This document shows positions 901 to 5,898 of a stretch of DNA of 5,898 nt, piece by piece. Origin of the DNA: a virus (lineage: Duplodnaviria > Heunggongvirae > Uroviricota > Caudoviricetes); the IMG/VR virus record IMGVR_UViG_2713896773_000011. One strand, written 5' to 3'. The notes under the pieces were generated by a model. The model worked only from the letters and a program-made list of their open reading frames with translations. It searched no databases and was not told the origin of the DNA. The translations under genes and the position numbers were made by a program. The first letter of the stretch is position 1, and the number at the start of each line of letters is the position of its first letter.

Positions 901-1842
901 ATGAGCACTAAATTAACCGGCTATGTATGGGATGGTTGCGCAGCGTCAGGCATGAAATTATCCAGCGTGGCAATTATGGCACGCCTGGCTGATTTCAGTA
1001 ATGACGAAGGTGTGTGCTGGCCATCAATTGAAACCATTGCCCGCCAGATTGGCGCGGGGATGAGTACCGTCAGAACGGCTATCGCACGGCTGGAAGCAGA
1101 AGGCTGGTTAACGCGTAAGGCGCGTCGCCAGGGTAACCGCAATGCGTCGAATGTTTATCAGCTTAACGTTGCGAAGCTTCAGGCTGCGGCTTTTTCTCAA
1201 CTGTCAGATTCTGACCCGTCAAAATCTGACGCATCAAAATCTGACCCGTCAAAATTTGATGCGTCGAAATCTGGCAAAAAAGCGGGTTTTCACCCGTCAG
1301 AATCTGGCGGGGATCCGTCAGTAAAATCAAAACATGATCCGTCAGATAAAAAAACTTCTCGTCCGGACGCTTCGCAACCGGACACGCAGAAGGCTGAACA
1401 GGATTTTTTAACTCGCCATCCTGATGCGGTTGTATTCAGCCCTAAAAAGCGCCAGTGGGGGACGCAGGATGATTTGACCTGCGCACAGTGGCTCTGGAAA
1501 AAAATCATCGCCCTGTACGAGCATGCCGCCGAATGTGACGGCGAGGTGGTTCGTCCCAAAGAACCGAACTGGACAGCCTGGGCAAACGAAATTCGCCTGA
1601 TGTGTGTGCAGGATGGTCGTACTCATAAACAAATCTGCGAGATGTACAGCCGCGTCAGCCGCGATCCGTTCTGGTGCCGTAACGTGCTCAGCCCGTCGAA
1701 GCTGCGGGAAAAATGGGATGAGCTTTCCCTGCGCTTATCGCCGTCCGTCAGCACGTACACCGAAAAACGCGAAGACCCGTACTTCAAAGCCAGTTACGAC
1801 AACGTGGACTACAGCCAGATCCCGGCAGGATTCAGGGGGTGA
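901..1842 (+). CDS. Phage replication initiation protein (N-terminal winged-HTH DNA-binding domain, repeat-encoded linker, C-terminal DnaT/primosome-like domain)
   Basis: 313-aa ORF with GAGG 6 nt upstream of ATG 901. The N-terminus (SSVAIMARLADFSNDEGVCWPSIETIARQIGAGMSTVRTAIARLEAEGWL) is typical of HTH replication initiators. The central linker is encoded by tandem 15-bp repeats. The C-terminal region resembles phage replication/primosomal proteins. Confidence 0.85.
   Translation: MSTKLTGYVWDGCAASGMKLSSVAIMARLADFSNDEGVCWPSIETIARQIGAGMSTVRTAIARLEAEGWLTRKARRQGNRNASNVYQLNVAKLQAAAFSQLSDSDPSKSDASKSDPSKFDASKSGKKAGFHPSESGGDPSVKSKHDPSDKKTSRPDASQPDTQKAEQDFLTRHPDAVVFSPKKRQWGTQDDLTCAQWLWKKIIALYEHAAECDGEVVRPKEPNWTAWANEIRLMCVQDGRTHKQICEMYSRVSRDPFWCRNVLSPSKLREKWDELSLRLSPSVSTYTEKREDPYFKASYDNVDYSQIPAGFRG
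1201..1353. repeat. Iteron-like array of 15-bp direct repeats (consensus about CCGTCAAAATCTGAC) inside the replication gene; putative origin of replication
   Basis: Five contiguous in-phase 15-bp units at 1201-1215, 1216-1230, 1231-1245, 1246-1260 and 1261-1275, then degenerate copies starting at 1294, 1315 and 1339, followed by an A7 tract at 1347-1353. They encode DPSKS/DASKS pentapeptide repeats. The arrangement is analogous to lambda ori lying inside gene O. Confidence 0.6.
1834..1839 (+). promoter_or_regulatory. Shine-Dalgarno (AGGGGG) for the PerC-like gene
   Basis: AGGGGG ends 5 nt before ATG 1845. Confidence 0.5.
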
Positions 1843-1844
1843 TC

Positions 1845-2333
1845 ATGAGTCTGTTAAATGACGTTCAGAAATTCATTGAAGCCCATCCGGGGTGTACTTC
1901 CGGAGACATTGCGGATGCTTTTACAGGTTACTCACGGCAGCGCGTTCTGCAGTCAGCAAGCAAGTTACGTCAGAGTGGGCGTGTGGCTCACCGTTGTGAA
2001 GGGGATGCACGCAGACATTTCCCGCGCCAGACAAAGATATCGCCGGAGGCGGAACGGCAACCAGTTCGTGAAACCAGACCTGTGCGCAATTTCTATGTCG
2101 GCACTAACGACCCGCGGGTGATTTTGTGCCTGGCCCGCCAGGCGGAAGAACTGGAGTCCAGGGGCTTATTTCGTCGTGCTGCAACCGTGTGGATGGCGGC
2201 ATTCCGTGAAAGCCACTCCCAGCCAGAACGAAACAATTTTCTGGCACGTCGTGAGCGGTGCTTACGGAAAAGCAGCAAGCGCGCTGCATCGGGTGAAGAG
2301 TGGTATCTGTCAGGGAATTACGTGGGGGCTTAA
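1845..2333 (+). CDS. PerC-family-like transcriptional regulator with an N-terminal winged-helix-like region
   Basis: ORF with ATG 1845 preceded by AGGGGG; the six-frame track starts at GTG 1839. The C-terminal segment LESRGLFRRAATVWMAAF matches the recalled PerC/Pch hallmark (LE..GL.RRAA..W). The stop TAA 2331-2333 overlaps ATG 2333 of the next gene. Confidence 0.55.
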   Translation: MSLLNDVQKFIEAHPGCTSGDIADAFTGYSRQRVLQSASKLRQSGRVAHRCEGDARRHFPRQTKISPEAERQPVRETRPVRNFYVGTNDPRVILCLARQAEELESRGLFRRAATVWMAAFRESHSQPERNNFLARRERCLRKSSKRAASGEEWYLSGNYVGA

Positions 2334-2986
2334 TGAGTAATAAATATTGCCGGGCGCTGGTGGAACTGCGGAACAAACCAGCCCATGAACTGAAGGAAGT
2401 GGGCGATCAGTGGCGCACGCCGGACAACATTTTCTGGGGAATTAACACCCTGTTTGGCCCGTTTGTTCTGGATCTGTTCACTGATGGTGATAACGCTAAA
2501 TGTGCCGCTTATTACACTGCGGAAGACAACGCGCTGGCGCATGACTGGTCAGAACGTCTTGCGGAGCTTAAAGGTGCTGCCTTTGGTAATCCCCCATACA
2601 GCCGCGCCAGTCAGCATGAGGGGCAATACATCACCGGCATGCGTTACATCATGAAACATGCCAGTGCCATGCGTGATAAAGGCGGGCGCTATGTTTTCCT
2701 GATCAAAGCTGCCACCAGCGAAGTGTGGTGGCCGGAAGATGCAGACCATATTGCTTTTATTCGCGGGCGTATTGGTTTTGAACTGCCAGCCTGGTTTATC
2801 CCGAAGGACGAGAAGCAGGTGCCGACAGGAGCTTTCTTCGCTGGTGCTATTGCTGTTTTCGACAAGACCTGGAAGGGACCGGCAATCAGCTACATCGGGC
2901 GCGATGAACTTGAGGCATGTGGTGAGGCGTTTCTGGCGCAGGTTCGCCAGCAGGCGGAAAAACTGGTCAGGGAGATGGCGGCATGA
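2333..2986 (+). CDS. Phage orphan DNA N6-adenine methyltransferase (Dam family)
   Basis: The FGNPPYS motif (catalytic NPPY of N6-adenine methyltransferases) is present along with conserved phage-Dam-like blocks (WRTPDNIFWGINTLFGPFVLDLFTDGDN; RYVFLIKAATSEVWWPED). ATG 2333 overlaps the upstream stop in a TAATG arrangement. The track ORF begins earlier at GTG 2300, but ATG 2333 is the more likely start. Confidence 0.88.
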   Translation: MSNKYCRALVELRNKPAHELKEVGDQWRTPDNIFWGINTLFGPFVLDLFTDGDNAKCAAYYTAEDNALAHDWSERLAELKGAAFGNPPYSRASQHEGQYITGMRYIMKHASAMRDKGGRYVFLIKAATSEVWWPEDADHIAFIRGRIGFELPAWFIPKDEKQVPTGAFFAGAIAVFDKTWKGPAISYIGRDELEACGEAFLAQVRQQAEKLVREMAA

Positions 2987-3093
2987 CGACGTTAACTCAA
3001 TGCCAGCAGCAGGTGCTGGATATGCTGATTTCTTATCAGAAAGAGCGTGGCTTTCCGCCAACCAATCAGGAGGTGGCAACCATGCTGGGATAA
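2983..3093 (+). CDS. 36-aa mini-ORF resembling the N-terminal part of the LexA DNA-binding domain (helices 1-2 only)
   Basis: MTTLTQCQQQVLDMLISYQKERGFPPTNQEVATMLG aligns by eye with the LexA N-terminus ([34 protein letters not shown]) and stops before the recognition helix. ATG 2983 overlaps the Dam stop (ATGA). Confidence 0.4.
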   Translation: MTTLTQCQQQVLDMLISYQKERGFPPTNQEVATMLG

Positions 3094-3098
3094 CCAGC

Positions 3099-3422
3099 AT
3101 GCAAAACAGCAGATCGCACTGGGGTCACAGAGAACCCAGGAAGATATCAAAATGGCTGTTGCGGATGATGATTGTGCTTCACGTGCTGTGCCTGCTGCCG
3201 CTGCTGACCGGTTGCGGAAGTACGCGGACAGTTTACGTGAGCGTTCCGGTGGCACCACTGCCACCCAGCCTGACTTCTGATACTCCTGTACCGTTTATAC
3301 CTAATCCGCTGACGTATGGTGCCAGTCTGGAGCTGAATGTGAGTCTGTTGTCTGCGCTGGCTAACTGCAATCGGGATAAAGCTGATATTCGTAAAATAGA
3401 TGCAGAGAGAACTAACCATTAA
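3099..3422 (+). CDS. Lipoprotein (signal peptide with lipobox LLTG|C; Pro-rich mature region with a second Cys); function unknown, o-spanin-like or exclusion-type
   Basis: Frame open from 2739, but the plausible start is ATG 3099 (alternative ATG 3165). It has a positively charged n-region, a hydrophobic stretch (MMIVLHVLCLLPLLTGC), Gly at +2, a proline-rich segment (VPVAPLPPSLTSDTPVPFIPNP) and a downstream Cys. Confidence 0.6.
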   Translation: MQNSRSHWGHREPRKISKWLLRMMIVLHVLCLLPLLTGCGSTRTVYVSVPVAPLPPSLTSDTPVPFIPNPLTYGASLELNVSLLSALANCNRDKADIRKIDAERTNH

Positions 3423-3443
3423 GCAATAAAATTGTCAAATTAA

Positions 3444-4070
3444 TCAGTTGTCAAATGAATATACGTTAAAGGTATATGTCGACATAATTTCACCAAGTAC
3501 CTCAATACATACACTTTTTTTATGAAAATTACTGGGAAATGAACTTAGCTCCTCAAGACATTGCACATAAGTGCTGATATCACTTGCATCACGTTCAAGG
3601 AATTTCACTTGACCAAAAGAAGGAGTTTTAATCTTGGTTCTTTGCTGGATTATATGGATAAAGTGTGTAGTTGGTGAAACTATTACTCTTGAAATATCGG
3701 AAATGATGTCTTCTTGAACTTGCCGATAAAGTAAATCCTTTGGGTAATGGTGTTTAATCTCGATGGTTGCAACATTGCCATTATGTTCAGACGTTAATAT
3801 CGACTGGTTATAAAGTGATATGTCAACAGCGCCGATACCGAGTTTTGGATGCTCACTTAAAGCAGTTAGTGTGCTGATTTGATTGAGTATAACAACTAAC
3901 TCATCACGTATTTGTGTTTCATGTTTGCGATTGTAGAAGTAGCCATTCAGTTCATTTAACTTTTTATGCATCCTATCGTGACTAATTGCTTCGATCAGTA
4001 AATCCTGAATCATACTTTTCTCTAGGTAATCCGAACGGTTGTAAGTGACAGTATTGTGCTGGCATGTCAT
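3444..4070 (-). CDS. Hypothetical protein (208 aa) with a possible PD-(D/E)xK nuclease-like signature
   Basis: Long ORF in AT-rich DNA, second gene of a minus-strand pair. Candidate motif residues are D56/E57 (RDELVV), D83 (GIGAVDISL) and E104-I-K106 (ATIEIKHH). No good SD precedes ATG 4070; an internal ATG (Met20, about 4013) follows a purine-rich stretch. Confidence 0.6.
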   Translation of the reverse strand: MTCQHNTVTYNRSDYLEKSMIQDLLIEAISHDRMHKKLNELNGYFYNRKHETQIRDELVVILNQISTLTALSEHPKLGIGAVDISLYNQSILTSEHNGNVATIEIKHHYPKDLLYRQVQEDIISDISRVIVSPTTHFIHIIQQRTKIKTPSFGQVKFLERDASDISTYVQCLEELSSFPSNFHKKSVCIEVLGEIMSTYTFNVYSFDN

Positions 4071-4113
4071 TAATATGTAAAGGTATTGTGAATGCCAGAA
4101 AGATAACGAAGTA

Positions 4114-4449
4114 TCATCGATAGAAAAACTTTACAGCCCACTCGTAAACAGCTTTGTAAATCGGTTCATGGTAAATACTATCGATACTATTCAGATGTGC
4201 GATCATCGCCTCCACAGTTGTAGTGGTTGTTTCTAATATTTCGATTATTGCAGGGCGGTCATCATCTTCATCGAAGTATTCGAACAGCAGTACAGGTTTA
4301 CCATGCAATTCAGCATCTGAGACTCTAAGGTTACAACTACCGCTCAACTCAAAGTGAATTTTGTAATTACCTTCTACAGAATGGCCTACGGGGAAAAAGT
4401 ATAGGGTGTCATCTTTGTTCAAAAGCCATTCCCATTCATAACTATTCAT
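4114..4449 (-). CDS. Hypothetical small acidic protein (111 aa from ATG 4449; 117 aa if ATG 4467)
   Basis: First gene of the minus-strand pair. A strong SD (AGGAG, plus-strand coordinates 4457-4461) sits 7 nt upstream of ATG 4449. It contains an acidic run (FEYFDEDDDRP) and a Thr5 tract. I recognise no family. Confidence 0.6.
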   Translation of the reverse strand: MNSYEWEWLLNKDDTLYFFPVGHSVEGNYKIHFELSGSCNLRVSDAELHGKPVLLFEYFDEDDDRPAIIEILETTTTTVEAMIAHLNSIDSIYHEPIYKAVYEWAVKFFYR

Positions 4450-4456
4450 TTGTGAA

Positions 4457-4461
4457 CTCCT
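4457..4461 (-). promoter_or_regulatory. Shine-Dalgarno (AGGAG) for the small minus-strand gene
   Basis: Minus-strand sequence reads ATGAACAGGAGTTCACAAATG; AGGAG is 7 nt upstream of the second ATG. Confidence 0.6.
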
Positions 4462-4536
4462 GTTCATTGAGTTTCAACAACTATCAACTACATCCAGCGA
4501 AGCATAAAAGATCGTTTATGGCAAAACCGGAATGGA

Positions 4537-4974
4537 GTGCGATTCGATTCTGAGAAGGGTGCCACGTACCGACACTGGATGGGAACGGGGACTGTCGGTG
4601 TGATGATTGCCGGCAGTGACCTGATTAATCCCATTCCGGAAGAATCAACGGAAACGGCGGCAAGACAACATATCGGGCCACTGGCCCCGGTGGCAGGCTC
4701 TGATTTGTATGTATTCAGGCCGGTGGCGCATAAAGTGGATTTTCATATCCGTGTGACGCCGGACACACCGGAAATACGGGCTGCCATCACCGCCGAGTTG
4801 CGTTCGTTCCTGCTGCGTGATGGTTATCCGCAGGGAGAACTGAAGGTGTCACGTATCAGTGAAGCGATTTCCGGTGCGAACGGGGAATACAGCCATCAGT
4901 TGCTTGCACCGGCGGACAATATCTCCATTGCAAAAAATGAACTGGCGGTACTGGGGACGATTTCATGGACGTGA
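4537..4974 (+). pseudogene. Baseplate assembly protein J-like (P2 gpJ / Mu gp47 family), C-terminal fragment only
   Basis: About 145 codons ending ...AVLGTISWT, against roughly 300 aa expected for J-family proteins. The frame is open back to 4471 with no ATG and no SD, starting at the edge of the low-GC segment. It is followed by an I-like gene and a tail fiber gene in the canonical J-I-H order. Similar to the e14 jayE remnant by recall. Confidence 0.65.
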
Positions 4975-5549
4975 CAAACGATGATTACATCCGTCTGTTG
5001 TCGGCACTGTTGCCGCCCGGTCCGGCGTGGTCAGCCAGAGATCCGGCGATTGCCGGTGCGGCACCGTCATTAACCCGCGTTCATCAGCGTGCGGATGCCC
5101 TGATGCGGGAGCTGGATCCGCGCACCACTACTGAACTGATAAACCGCTGGGAGCGTCTGTGCGGTCTGCCGGATGAATGTATTCCCGCAGGGACACAGAC
5201 CCTTCGCCAGCGTCAGCAACGACTGGATGCGAAGGTTAACCTGGCGGGCGGCATCAATGAGGATTTTTACCTTGCACAGCTTGCTGCCCTGGGCAGACCA
5301 GACGCTACCATCACGCGATACGACAAAAGCACGTTCACCTGCTCATCTGCCTGTACTGACGCGGTGAATGCGCCGGAATGGCGGTATTACTGGCAGGTCA
5401 ACATGCCAGTCGCCACCAACACCACCTGGATGACATGTGGCGATCCCTGTGATTCCGCGCTGCGCTTCTGGGGGGACACCGTTGTCGAGTGTGTGCTTAA
5501 CAAACTCTGCCCGTCGCATACCTATGTGATTTTTAAATATCCGGAGTAA
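4965..5549 (+). CDS. Phage tail/baseplate protein I-like (YmfQ / DUF2313, Mu gp48-like)
   Basis: 194-aa ORF whose ATG 4965 overlaps the upstream gene end (ATGGACGTGA). The N-terminal LLPPGPAW motif and the position between the J-like gene and the tail fiber gene support the call. Confidence 0.8.
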
Positions 5550-5552
5550 TCC

Positions 5553-5898
5553 ATGCATCGTATAGACACGAAAACCGCGCAGAAGGATAAGTTCGGCGCG
5601 GGTAAGAACGGTTTTACCCGTGGTAACCCCCAGACTGGCACGCCTGCCACCGATCTGGATGATGACTACTTTGACATGTTGCAGGAGGAGCTTTGCAGCG
5701 TGGTGGAGGCATCCGGTGCCAGCCTGGAGAAGGGGCGGCACGATCAGTTGCTTACCGCACTTCGCGCGCTGCTGTTAAGCCGCAAGAATCCGTTTGGCGA
5801 TATCAAATCGGATGGCACGGTGAAAACGGCTCTCGAAAACCTTGGTTTGGGAGAAGCAGCTAAAAGGAATGTAGGTACAGGGGCGAATCAGATACCTG
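5553..5898 (+). CDS. Phage tail fiber protein, N-terminal part (3' end beyond window)
   Basis: ATG 5553 lies 3 nt after the upstream stop, with GGAG at 5541-5544. The N-terminus ([47 protein letters not shown]) resembles the conserved tail-fiber N-terminal domain. The ORF runs off the window. Confidence 0.75.

Follow-up and report, generated by a model that had tools for sequence, protein, structure and literature searches.

A candidate replication origin within the linker-coding part of a lambda O-type initiator gene of e14/P27-like temperate phages

Introduction

Does a repeat array inside a phage replication gene serve the protein that it encodes, or is it a site in the DNA itself? This question is raised by a prophage sequence of 5,898 nucleotides (IMG/VR record IMGVR_UViG_2713896773_000011), the whole of which we call the window. 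A gene on its plus strand (901-1842) encodes a lambda O-like initiator of 313 amino acids, and short tandem repeats run through the middle of the gene. A preliminary description of this DNA had proposed that they form an origin of the ori-lambda kind and that the element, lacking structural genes, leads a satellite-like or plasmid-like life. From the comparisons reported here, we consider it probable that positions 1195-1383 are a cis-acting element, most likely an origin of e14/P27-like temperate phages, located in the linker-coding part of its own lambda O-type initiator gene. In the literature, we found neither a description of the origin of this initiator family nor a published origin for the group of e14-, CPS-53-, P27-, and SfV-like phages.

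Results

In the initiator, a linker that bears the repeats joins an N-terminal winged helix to a C-terminal domain of the lambda O type. The entire protein (amino acids 1 to 313) matched phrog_391, "replication initiation O-like" (E = 3e-135), and is 99% identical to the "DNA replication protein O" of PhiR29_1. Its N-terminal DNA-binding domain (amino acids 1 to 97; 901-1191, plus strand) carries an HTH_36 winged helix (PF13730) at residues 23 to 70 (E = 4e-11), while the GntR, MarR, and DnaD_N matches were weaker. Pfam detected no Phage_rep_O (PF04492), the family of the lambda O N-domain, in this region; the two share the fold class but differ in family. A search of the PDB sequences with the initiator gave only weak MarR-type matches (E ~0.008) and no solved relative. 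We presume that this domain is the reader of the repeats.

The C-terminal module (1384-1842, plus strand) is homologous to the C-terminal domain of lambda O, which in lambda is the P-binding domain. In tblastn, residues 131 to 277 were 34 to 36% identical to O of lambda, 434, 21, HK140, and Stx phages (E ~1e-18 to 4e-19), and blastp against lambda O gave E = 3e-26, with 36% identity over the same residues. The placement of the repeats in the linker of a replication gene is upheld by both the PHROG and the HTH_36 matches. The C-terminal module is also exchangeable: many relatives share residues 1 to 161/168 (~80% identity) and then continue into Phg_2220_C or other C termini, so that the N-domain stays with the repeats (~80% identity) while at least three kinds of C-terminal module follow them. 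The break, at residues 161 to 168, coincides with the end of the conserved DNA. As in lambda, where the same modularity is established, the N-domain and the repeats thus behave as one specificity module.

We then characterized the repeats themselves, whose units and enclosing segment are given without strand. Five in-phase 15-bp units occupy 1204-1278, with the consensus TCAAAATCTGAC+NNN, that is, TCA-AAA-TCT-GAC-NNN; there is a GTCA..TGAC dyad in every unit, and the 3 bp of the spacer vary. A repeat search placed copies at 1204, 1219, 1234, and 1249, spaced by 15 nt, and Tandem Repeats Finder reported 1210-1273 both at period 15 (4.3 copies, 81% matches) and at period 30 (2.1 copies, 88% matches). 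The preliminary description had counted five perfect-phase repeats. Their phase is indeed perfect but their sequence is not, the fifth in-phase unit (1264-1278, TCGAAATCTGGCAAA) being degenerate. The in-frame translation of the five units (SDSDP SKSDA SKSDP SKFDA SKSGK) agrees with the DPSKS/DASKS peptide repeats noted earlier.

Three related units lie downstream of this array, at 1285-1311, 1312-1335, and 1336-1354. The first, GGTTTTCACCCGTCAGAATCTGGCGGG, is the most conserved of all (consensus ggTTTT.ACCCgtCAGAATCTGG.GGg, at least 90% at most positions); another repeat copy was found at 1282-1311 and a degenerate copy, TCAGAATCTGGCGGG, at 1297-1311. The other two are GATCCGTCAG units that start 24 nt apart, at 1312 and 1336, and together span 1312-1354. 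Each contains one GATC site (1312-1315 and 1336-1339), and an A7 run closes the second (1348-1354). The degenerate copies mentioned in the preliminary description correspond to the one at 1297-1311 and to the two GATCCGTCAG units, and its A7 tract is present as well, although it runs to 1354, one base past the proposed end of the array at 1353. Overall, the segment contains three unit classes, TCAAAATCTGAC, TTTTCACCCGTCAGAATCTGG, and GATCCGTCAGTAAAATCAAAACAT.

The repeat pattern is far beyond chance. The motif TCRRAWTYTGRY had 10 matches, all within 1203-1308, against 0.07 expected, a count reached by none of 200 shuffles, and GAYSCRTCR had 8, all within 1213-1344, against 1.0 expected. Together with the two repeat searches, these counts confirm that the array exists. 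Since the units are dyad symmetric (GTCAGA-T-TCTGAC), they are inverted as well as direct repeats. In TGAY-SC-RTCA, the Y of GAY would pair with the last base of the variable codon; inspected by eye, the two positions showed no consistent co-variation. As for base composition, 1312-1354 is the most A+T-rich part of the segment (local GC, 0.43), and the lowest GC in any 60-nt interval is 0.40 to 0.43. The A+T-richer stretch at ~1318-1354, with its A7 run, is short and far weaker than the AT-rich block of lambda. We regard 1312-1354 as a candidate for the unwinding or methylation-sensitive part.

To separate constraint on DNA from constraint on protein, we used a set of ~170 related prophages and derived codon statistics from 50 homologues ranging from Escherichia to Proteus and Providencia. 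The synonymous sites were nearly frozen across 1195-1383, the segment that we propose as the candidate origin. Within it, protein conservation was 0.70, the major-codon fraction 0.87, and the normalised codon entropy 0.24, compared to 0.84, 0.55, and 0.79, respectively, in the N-domain (Mann-Whitney P = 4e-17 and 8e-20 for the two codon measures). Similarly, the fraction of codons identical to those of the window in pairwise comparisons was ~0.85 in the segment and ~0.4 in the N-domain. The array had been described as extending over 1201-1353; the repeats are there, but the DNA under constraint is wider, at ~1195-1383.

The same picture emerged from individual codons. Serine, a six-fold degenerate residue, was encoded by TCA in 100% of the homologues at many columns of the segment, and in the columns of the GATCCGTCAG units Asp was GAT, Val was GTA, and Ser was TCA in 100% of them. 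We also counted codons in 224 15-bp units from the 50 homologues. Units had to begin with TCA or TCG to be chosen, and the TCA found for the first serine in 220 of the 224 is pre-set by this rule. Lysine was AAA in 149 cases and never AAG, and GAG was never used for Glu. The third residue, serine, was TCT in 126 units and TCC in 13, and the glycine at position 5 was GGG in 20, with no other Ser or Gly codon at these positions among the 12 commonest codons listed. A comparison of repeat number across homologues, as had been suggested, showed that the number of 15-bp units varies in 15-bp steps.

These data bear directly on the simplest explanation, namely that the segment is only a low-complexity protein linker. 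The 15-bp repeats would then have arisen by slippage and would encode a flexible Ser/Asp/Pro/Lys spacer with no cis role, and common descent, concerted evolution, or codon preference would account for the similarity of the DNA. The peptide is indeed rich in Ser, Asp, Lys, and Pro, its length varies by five-residue steps between homologues, and slippage does homogenise tandem repeats. However, the linker is less conserved than the N-domain as protein and far more conserved at synonymous sites, which is the opposite of what protein-only constraint predicts. Moreover, its serines are fixed as TCA, whereas AGC, TCT, TCC, and TCG all occur freely in the N-domain of these genes; to our knowledge, TCA is not a preferred serine codon in enterobacteria. 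Two further observations, the use of one DNA unit in two reading frames and repeat spacings in distant homologues that are not multiples of three (both described below), also speak against it. A mere linker is thus strongly disfavoured, and we consider it very improbable. The codon statistics indicate instead that selection conserves the nucleotide sequence of the repeat segment and not the encoded peptide.

An overlapping gene in another frame would likewise constrain synonymous sites. Open reading frames of 60 codons (1142-1324, plus strand) and 55 codons (1163-1330, minus strand) do cross the repeats, and one antisense frame is stop-free over 189 nt in 25 of the 50 homologues. Yet this best antisense frame is broken in the other half, the remaining frames contain stops in 49 or 50 of the 50, and open frames are expected when a repeat unit happens to be stop-free. 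We therefore hold an overlapping gene to be extremely improbable.

The reading frame of the repeats is not fixed either. A 22-nt unit, TTTTSACCCKTCAGAATCTG, is read in a second frame in phage P27 and in a Citrobacter prophage (L051), the latter having two copies, one per frame. Accordingly, the translation of the most conserved unit (1285-1311) is GFHPSESG in 46 cases but VLTLQNLD in P27 and VFTRQNLT in L051. In another relative (L064), CAGAATCTGRAC is retained at 15-bp spacing under a different peptide. This is a complete 44-kb circular phage genome; of its 46 annotated features, 41 were examined, and among these no replication gene other than the initiator could be recognised. In Proteus-type relatives, the 24-nt sequence GATCCACAAGTAAATTCAAAACAT is present twice without mismatch. 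The core CAGAATCTG is unchanged across N-domains that are only ~50 to 60% identical, and with this core constant, no fine-scale co-variation between protein and site was seen within the Enterobacterales. In at least 120 viral contigs, a 27-nt block occurred exactly once per contig and always inside an open reading frame; a homologous N-domain lay upstream of it in 116 of 120, and the other 4 were cut by the contig end.

In more distant HTH_36 homologues, the winged helix is likewise followed at once by repeats, which differ from lineage to lineage. In Pseudomonas, there are five repeats of 21 nt with spacings of 16, 17, 23, and 22 nt, which are not multiples of three; in Saccharibacteria, there are five of 22 nt; and in the Caedibacter plasmid pKAP, a perfect 21-nt tandem array of ~7 units lies inside the gene.

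The codon data demonstrate selection at the nucleotide level and not the purpose of that selection, and the segment might act at the DNA or RNA level but not as an origin, which we regard as unlikely. It could offer sites to another phage or host protein, for instance in early-gene regulation or anti-repression; it could form an mRNA or single-strand structure controlling the translation or stability of the initiator message; or it could be a conserved junction promoting recombination between the exchangeable N- and C-terminal modules. Several features are in agreement with this. The segment coincides exactly with the boundary at which one C-terminal module replaces another, no typical A+T-rich unwinding element was seen, and as a single strand the segment folds far better than its shuffled counterparts (z = -6.5 for RNA and -5.6 for DNA), a property that also counts against an origin. 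The strong fold, however, follows automatically from the dyad-symmetric units, and the predicted unpaired stretches (~1318-1340 and ~1345-1360) are as frozen synonymously as the paired ones. Regarding regulation, a sigma-70 scan of 1100-1500 gave no promoter-like site, and an Rfam search of the window returned no family; one terminator-like hairpin (1296-1283, minus strand) is not conserved in homologues. The variable spacer codons and unit numbers point to long divergence under site-specific constraint rather than to the recent recombinational spread of a junction. Finally, the distant homologues repeat a multi-copy array after the DNA-binding domain of the initiator, at the ori-lambda position but with different sequences. 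Such recurrence is more readily explained by self-recognition than by a generic junction or RNA switch. Because selection acts on the DNA of the repeats, they are most likely a replication origin inside their own initiator gene, and a linker peptide that tolerates many sequences allows the coding frame to carry such a site.

We compared this arrangement with ori-lambda in gene O (lambda, 434, 21, and Stx phages such as 933W). In both, the initiator has two domains, an N-terminal winged helix and a homologous C terminus; a dyad-symmetric repeat array lies in the part encoding the inter-domain linker; and the gene is located in the early rightward operon after a CII-like gene. In pairwise alignment, the repeats line up with those residues of lambda O for which the iterons and the AT-rich region code. 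The aligned position, the C-terminal homology, and the DNA-level selection together support the proposal of a lambda-like dual coding and cis-acting architecture, as far as sequence comparison can indicate. There are also differences. Lambda and the Stx phages have four to six iterons of ~19 bp, whereas here at least five copies are spaced by 15 bp and are followed by three units at 21 to 24 bp. Lambda has a long A+T-rich block, and no block of that length was seen here. In lambda the P gene follows O, but here the initiator is followed by a PerC-like (PerC/MarR-like) winged-helix protein and a DNA adenine methyltransferase. Lastly, the element, unlike that of lambda, includes conserved GATC sites.

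By analogy with lambda, dimers of the N-domain would bind the dyad-symmetric units, the predicted binding array comprising the five 15-bp units and three CCGTCAG-containing units 21 to 24 bp apart. The resulting nucleoprotein complex would distort the DNA so that the A+T-richer 1312-1354, with its two GATC sites and A7 run, opens, and the C-terminal domain would then bring in the host helicase. Three points, besides the strong single-strand fold and the missing co-variation between N-domain and core, weigh against reading the segment as an origin. It shows no strongly A+T-rich unwinding element comparable to that of lambda. The 15-bp spacing corresponds to ~1.4 helical turns, compared to about two turns in lambda, so the geometry of any complex would differ from that of lambda. 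Finally, no P-like or DnaC-like partner is encoded within the two downstream genes, even though the C terminus resembles a P-binding domain; helicase recruitment would thus be direct or go through another partner.

Parallels also exist with the iteron origins of theta plasmids (R6K pi, pPS10 RepA, F RepE, and P1 RepA), which combine a winged-helix initiator with multiple direct repeats, as predicted here; the pKAP homologue with its in-gene array adds to this likeness. In plasmids, the usual place of iterons is outside the rep gene, and they have a second role in copy-number control by handcuffing. In the P1 plasmid origin, short GATC-bearing repeats need Dam methylation.

The methyltransferase of the window is a phage Dam-type N6-adenine enzyme encoded two genes downstream of the initiator (2333-2986, plus strand; Pfam Dam, E = 1e-45). 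Among 42 homologous loci, N6-adenine methyltransferases made up 31 of the 55 first- or second-downstream open reading frames scanned, and they belonged to three unrelated families (Dam PF05869, D12 PF02086, and MT-A70 PF05063). They were found in most of these loci, whereas DnaC-like and DnaB genes were downstream only in the P27/Proteus type. No helicase-loader gene, either lambda P or DnaC-like, was found immediately downstream in the window. The Dam-type enzyme is possibly linked in function to the GATC sites of the segment. A broader proposal, which we consider rather doubtful, is that the in-gene origin is methylation coupled and loader independent and that coding-embedded iterons are perhaps general in the HTH_36 initiator superfamily, from Pseudomonas to Saccharibacteria. 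If so, the GATC units (1312-1354) would be the opening or licensing part, with their state set by the downstream adenine methyltransferase; three unrelated methyltransferase families would have been recruited to the same position beside the initiator; and the lambda O-like C-terminal domain would recruit the host helicase without a phage loader of the P or DnaC type.

The satellite-like or plasmid-like lifestyle proposed earlier found no support. The same gene with the same repeats occurs in the complete phages PhiR29_1 (46 kb) and vB_EcoM-689R6 (98 to 99% protein identity), and the window itself is a prophage that has lost internal DNA at least twice. At 3092, a LexA-like gene breaks off after 36 codons and runs into an Rz/Rz1 lysis fragment with two cargo genes; a second junction connects these to the final 145 codons of a baseplate-J gene. 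Nor are structural genes lacking, since the right end (4537-5898) has kept tail genes. A plasmid search found no small plasmid with this replicon; the plasmid matches were prophages on large replicons, mis-typed chromosomes, e14-sized circles, and one excised whole phage. The window sequence was matched, at least in part, in 3319 of 5426 complete E. coli genomes, none of which had its arrangement over at least 80% of its length. A decaying prophage thus explains the intact initiator without any special lifestyle.

Discussion

Our analysis provides a concrete candidate origin of ~190 bp for very common enterobacterial temperate phages and remnants of the e14-, CPS-53-, P27-, and SfV-like kind. 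The arrangement is sound and conceptually familiar: it extends the lambda paradigm and overturns nothing. A precedent exists in a lambdoid plasmid, which no longer replicates once its in-gene iterons carry synonymous changes (Kozlowska et al. 2020, PMC7466680). The "P27" studied there differs from the L17-type gene of phiP27 (AJ298298) and bears iterons of the lambda type (ATCCCTCAAAACGAGGGA); the study is therefore no more than a precedent. A paper on plasmid pIGRK was also considered and is not relevant to this origin.

The segment is also a clean natural case of dual-use sequence, in which constraint on DNA clearly outweighs that on protein: the codons are frozen, the amino acids drift, and one unit is read in two frames. 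This could be useful for annotation, with synonymous-site conservation as a flag for origins, and for the recoding or engineering of such phages.

The prophage e14 of E. coli K-12 shares the early gene order ymfL, ymfM, and O-like gene (the ymfL-ymfM-ymfN [oweE] region). Over its first 79 residues, the K-12-type ymfN product matches the initiator described here at 99% identity (L050, L056); beyond them it is fused to a different sequence, apparently that of a late-gene product. The repeats and the C-terminal domain are therefore gone there, whereas the window retains the complete gene and the complete repeat segment. Since the K-12 gene is truncated before the repeats, e14 of K-12 should be without this origin. 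The right end of the window resembles e14 as well, with the baseplate-J fragment, a Mu gp48-like (YmfQ-type) gene, and a tail fibre gene.

The repeat array lies in the linker-coding part of the initiator gene

A full-length match (E = 3e-135) assigns the initiator (901-1842, plus strand, 313 aa) to PHROG 391, "replication initiation O-like," and the protein carries an HTH_36 winged helix at residues 23 to 70. Its C-terminal part is 34 to 36% identical to the O C-terminal domain of lambda, 434, 21, HK140, and many Stx phages (blastp against lambda O, E = 3e-26), and Klebsiella phage Kp4878-1 harbors a copy that is 72% identical.

Using Tandem Repeats Finder and motif counts compared to shuffled sequences, we found the repeats reported in the preliminary description to be correctly described, with small adjustments. 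A period-15 array occupies 1210-1273 (4.3 copies, 81% matches; 88% matches at period 30), and the in-frame 15-bp units over 1204-1278 are TCAGATTCTGACCCG, TCAAAATCTGACGCA, TCAAAATCTGACCCG, TCAAAATTTGATGCG, and TCGAAATCTGGCAAA. These five in-phase units are followed by a related unit, TTTTCACCCGTCAGAATCTGGCGGG, at 1287-1311 and by two GATCCGTCAG units starting at 1312 and 1336, 24 nt apart, the second of which runs into an A7 tract (1348-1354). The phase of the repeats is thus perfect, as had been stated, but their sequence is not, and the A7 tract is present but ends at 1354 instead of 1353. The motif TCRRAWTYTGRY had 10 matches, all within 1203-1308, compared to 0.07 expected, and GAYSCRTCR had 8 compared to 1.0 expected. 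The 15-bp units are dyad symmetric, the first one being GTCAGA-T-TCTGAC, which accounts for the matches on both strands and the many inverted repeats. A terminator-like hairpin, CGGGTGAAAACCCG followed by CTTTTTT, is also found on the minus strand at 1283-1296; its stem is not conserved in most homologues.

Codons of the repeat segment are frozen

We collected 59 homologous loci from species-representative genomes and aligned 50 intact genes codon by codon; these came from Escherichia, Klebsiella, Enterobacter, Citrobacter, Kluyvera, Yersinia, Rosenbergiella, Tatumella, Providencia, and Proteus. In the N-terminal domain (codons 2 to 97), protein conservation was 0.84, the major-codon fraction 0.55, and the normalized codon entropy 0.79. 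In the repeat segment (codons 99 to 161, nt 1195-1383), the corresponding values were 0.70, 0.87, and 0.24, and after codon 161 they were 0.64, 0.62, and 0.69. The N-terminal domain and the repeat segment differed strongly in major-codon fraction (Mann-Whitney, P = 4e-17) and in entropy (P = 8e-20). Furthermore, in pairwise comparisons with the window, shared degenerate residues had identical codons at a frequency of about 0.4 in the N-terminal domain, compared to about 0.85 across the repeat segment, and this held for every homologue. Throughout the 50-gene alignment, six-fold degenerate serine was encoded by TCA in 100% of the sequences at many columns, valine by GTA in 100%, and the aspartate of both Asp-Pro pairs by GAT in 100%, giving GATCC. 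Among 224 in-register units, lysine was encoded by AAA 149 times and never by AAG, while glycine at the variable position was encoded by GGG 20 times, with no other glycine codon among the 12 commonest codons listed. A freer protein with frozen codons is the pattern that selection on the DNA itself produces, and the repeat segment is very probably a cis-acting DNA element. A second gene overlapping in another frame is unlikely: stop codons interrupt four of the five other frames in 49 or all 50 of the homologues and the remaining frame in half of them.

The units are also found in different reading frames. The 22-nt unit TTTTSACCCKTCAGAATCTG is read G-F-H/D-P-S-E-S-G in 46 cases, but in phage P27 it is one base out of register and read V-L-T-L-Q-N-L-D. 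A Citrobacter prophage has two copies 32 nt apart, read GFHPSDSD and VFTRQNLT, and a Klebsiella phage (L064) keeps CAGAATCTGRAC at 15-bp spacing while encoding the quite different peptide SGRSESEPSESGRPESERP. Distant HTH_36 homologues harbor their own in-gene repeats directly after the winged helix: five 21-nt copies in Pseudomonas piscis (2745-2843 of its locus; spacings of 16, 17, 23, and 22 nt), five 22-nt copies in a Saccharibacteria contig/MAG (281-391; spacings of 18, 24, 24, and 23 nt), and, in Caedibacter plasmid pKAP (2805-2951), about seven perfect tandem copies of a 21-nt unit. Because some of the spacings in the first two are not multiples of three, peptide repetition cannot account for them. 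At this depth of divergence, different lineages of the DNA-binding domain have different repeat sequences, and coding-embedded iterons may be general for the HTH_36 superfamily.

The repeats are inherited together with the DNA-binding domain

Many relatives are about 80% identical to the window over residues 1 to 161/168 and then have an unrelated C terminus, which is Phg_2220_C in most and another type in P27 and Proteus; L17 of P27 shares only the N-terminal half (about 44 to 48% identity). The window shares its lambda-O-like C terminus with Kp4878-1, Providencia, and one MAG. The C terminus switches at the point where the frozen DNA ends, so that the DNA-binding domain and the repeats are inherited as one unit. 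In lambdoid O genes, the N-terminal/ori specificity module is likewise inherited as a unit. Additionally, the exact 27-nt block CAGAATCTGGNGGNGATCCNTCAGTAA occurs once per contig in at least 120 viral contigs, always inside an open reading frame (ORF); in the 120 contigs listed, a homologous N-terminal domain lies upstream in 116, the other 4 being cut by the contig end. In a complete circular 44-kb phage genome, the initiator is the only recognizable replication gene (30 kb, 41 of the 46 annotated features examined).

In K-12-type e14 (L050 and L056), the gene starting at 2501 encodes a 455-aa ymfN/oweE-type product in which only the first 79 residues (99% identical) are common with the initiator; the different sequence that follows is apparently a late-gene product. 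This gene is truncated after codon 79, and therefore the repeats are lost, as is the C-terminal domain.

The repeat segment is probably a replication origin

The comparative evidence well supports the earlier proposal of an iteron-type origin, and we consider the repeat segment to be probably such an element, a putative origin known from sequence comparison. It would be an in-gene origin of the known lambda type that differs in its repeats and in the family of its DNA-binding domain. N-terminal winged-helix dimers would bind the dyad-symmetric units, and the array, together with three CCGTCAG-containing units at 21- to 24-bp spacing, would form a complex resembling the lambda O-some. Opening would then occur in the adjoining A+T-richer stretch, where two GATC sites and the A7 run lie, and the lambda-O-like C-terminal domain would recruit the host helicase. 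All steps beyond a DNA element under selection are ones that we infer.

Because origin function and binding are proposed from sequence comparison, we leave a small share of probability to some other DNA- or RNA-level role, all such roles combined being rather unlikely. The segment folds far better than shuffled sequences (z = -6.5 as RNA, -5.6 as single-stranded DNA); the strong fold follows from the dyad-symmetric units, and stretches predicted to be unpaired are just as frozen. No promoter-like site was found in the segment, and no Rfam family was present. A recombination "junction" sequence, for its part, would not account for a constraint that is site specific yet leaves the spacer codons free and the number of units variable.

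The comparison supports the likeness to the lambda origin within gene O. When the two proteins are aligned pairwise, lambda O residues ~100 to 160 stand opposite those encoded by the repeats; read directly in lambda, this stretch is encoded by the four iterons and the A+T-rich block. The analogy thus rests on position and, in the C-terminal half, on homology as well. Three features set the window apart from lambda: its units are spaced at 15 bp, it has no strong A+T-rich block, and no P-like/DnaC-like loader gene is found within two genes downstream of the initiator. DnaC-like plus DnaB genes are found only in P27/Proteus-type relatives. No loader lies within this distance even though the C-terminal domain of the initiator is similar to the part of lambda O that binds P.

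Among 55 first- or second-downstream ORFs from 42 homologous loci (e.g., L002, L006, L010, L012, L013, L036, L043, and L064), 35 encode DNA methyltransferases (21 Dam PF05869, 6 D12-class PF02086, 4 MT-A70, and 4 C5 enzymes), the first three being unrelated N6-adenine families. The frozen segment keeps two to three GATC sites across homologues. Taken together, these findings hint that the putative origin may be linked to methylation.

The window is a decaying prophage

In the 5.9-kb window, the early region of a temperate prophage of the e14/CPS-53/P27 type (Escherichia coli or Shigella) is joined to late-region fragments. A YmfL/CII-like gene (5-556) and ymfM precede the initiator, whose stop codon is separated by only two bases (GGGGTGATCATGAGT) from a PerC/MarR-like yfdN gene (1845-2333; 162 aa, MarR-like winged helix and PerC-like C terminus). 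A Dam-type methyltransferase gene (2333-2986) is followed by the first 36 codons of a LexA-like gene (2983-3092; 108 aa in PhiR29_1), which is truncated there and joined to an Rz/Rz1 lysis fragment (Rz-like spanin/Rz1 [LysC]; ~3093/3100-3422). Two A+T-rich genes of unknown function lie on the minus strand beside this fragment (3444-4070, 208 aa; 4114-4467, 117 aa); they match PHROGs 12494 and 14397, had no match in Pfam or PADLOC, and look like prophage cargo genes. Beyond them lie the 3'-terminal 145 codons of a baseplate-J gene (4537-4974), followed by a Mu gp48-like gene (4965-5549) and, at the right end, by the start of a tail fiber gene. The deletion joints fall at 2983-3092, 3093-3422, and 4470-4974.

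The left 3.1 kb is common in E. coli genomes at 98 to 99% identity, and E. coli 20AR0354 has a 100% identical copy of the stretch 3093-4540, at least 80% of which is found in 73 genomes. No complete E. coli genome had the window arrangement over at least 80% of its length. Nothing points to the satellite- or plasmid-like replicative lifestyle that had been suggested: this decaying prophage has undergone at least two internal deletions, and the intact, complete phages PhiR29_1 and vB_EcoM-689R6 carry the initiator gene at 98 to 99% protein identity.

Immediately before the initiator, ymfM (553-891; 112 aa, phrog_1170) shares part of its sequence with a DUF4222 ORF (732-911; 59 aa, Pfam E = 9e-19) read in another frame. 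Both frames are family supported, and RefSeq annotates a DUF4222 protein at the same place in many genomes and plasmids.
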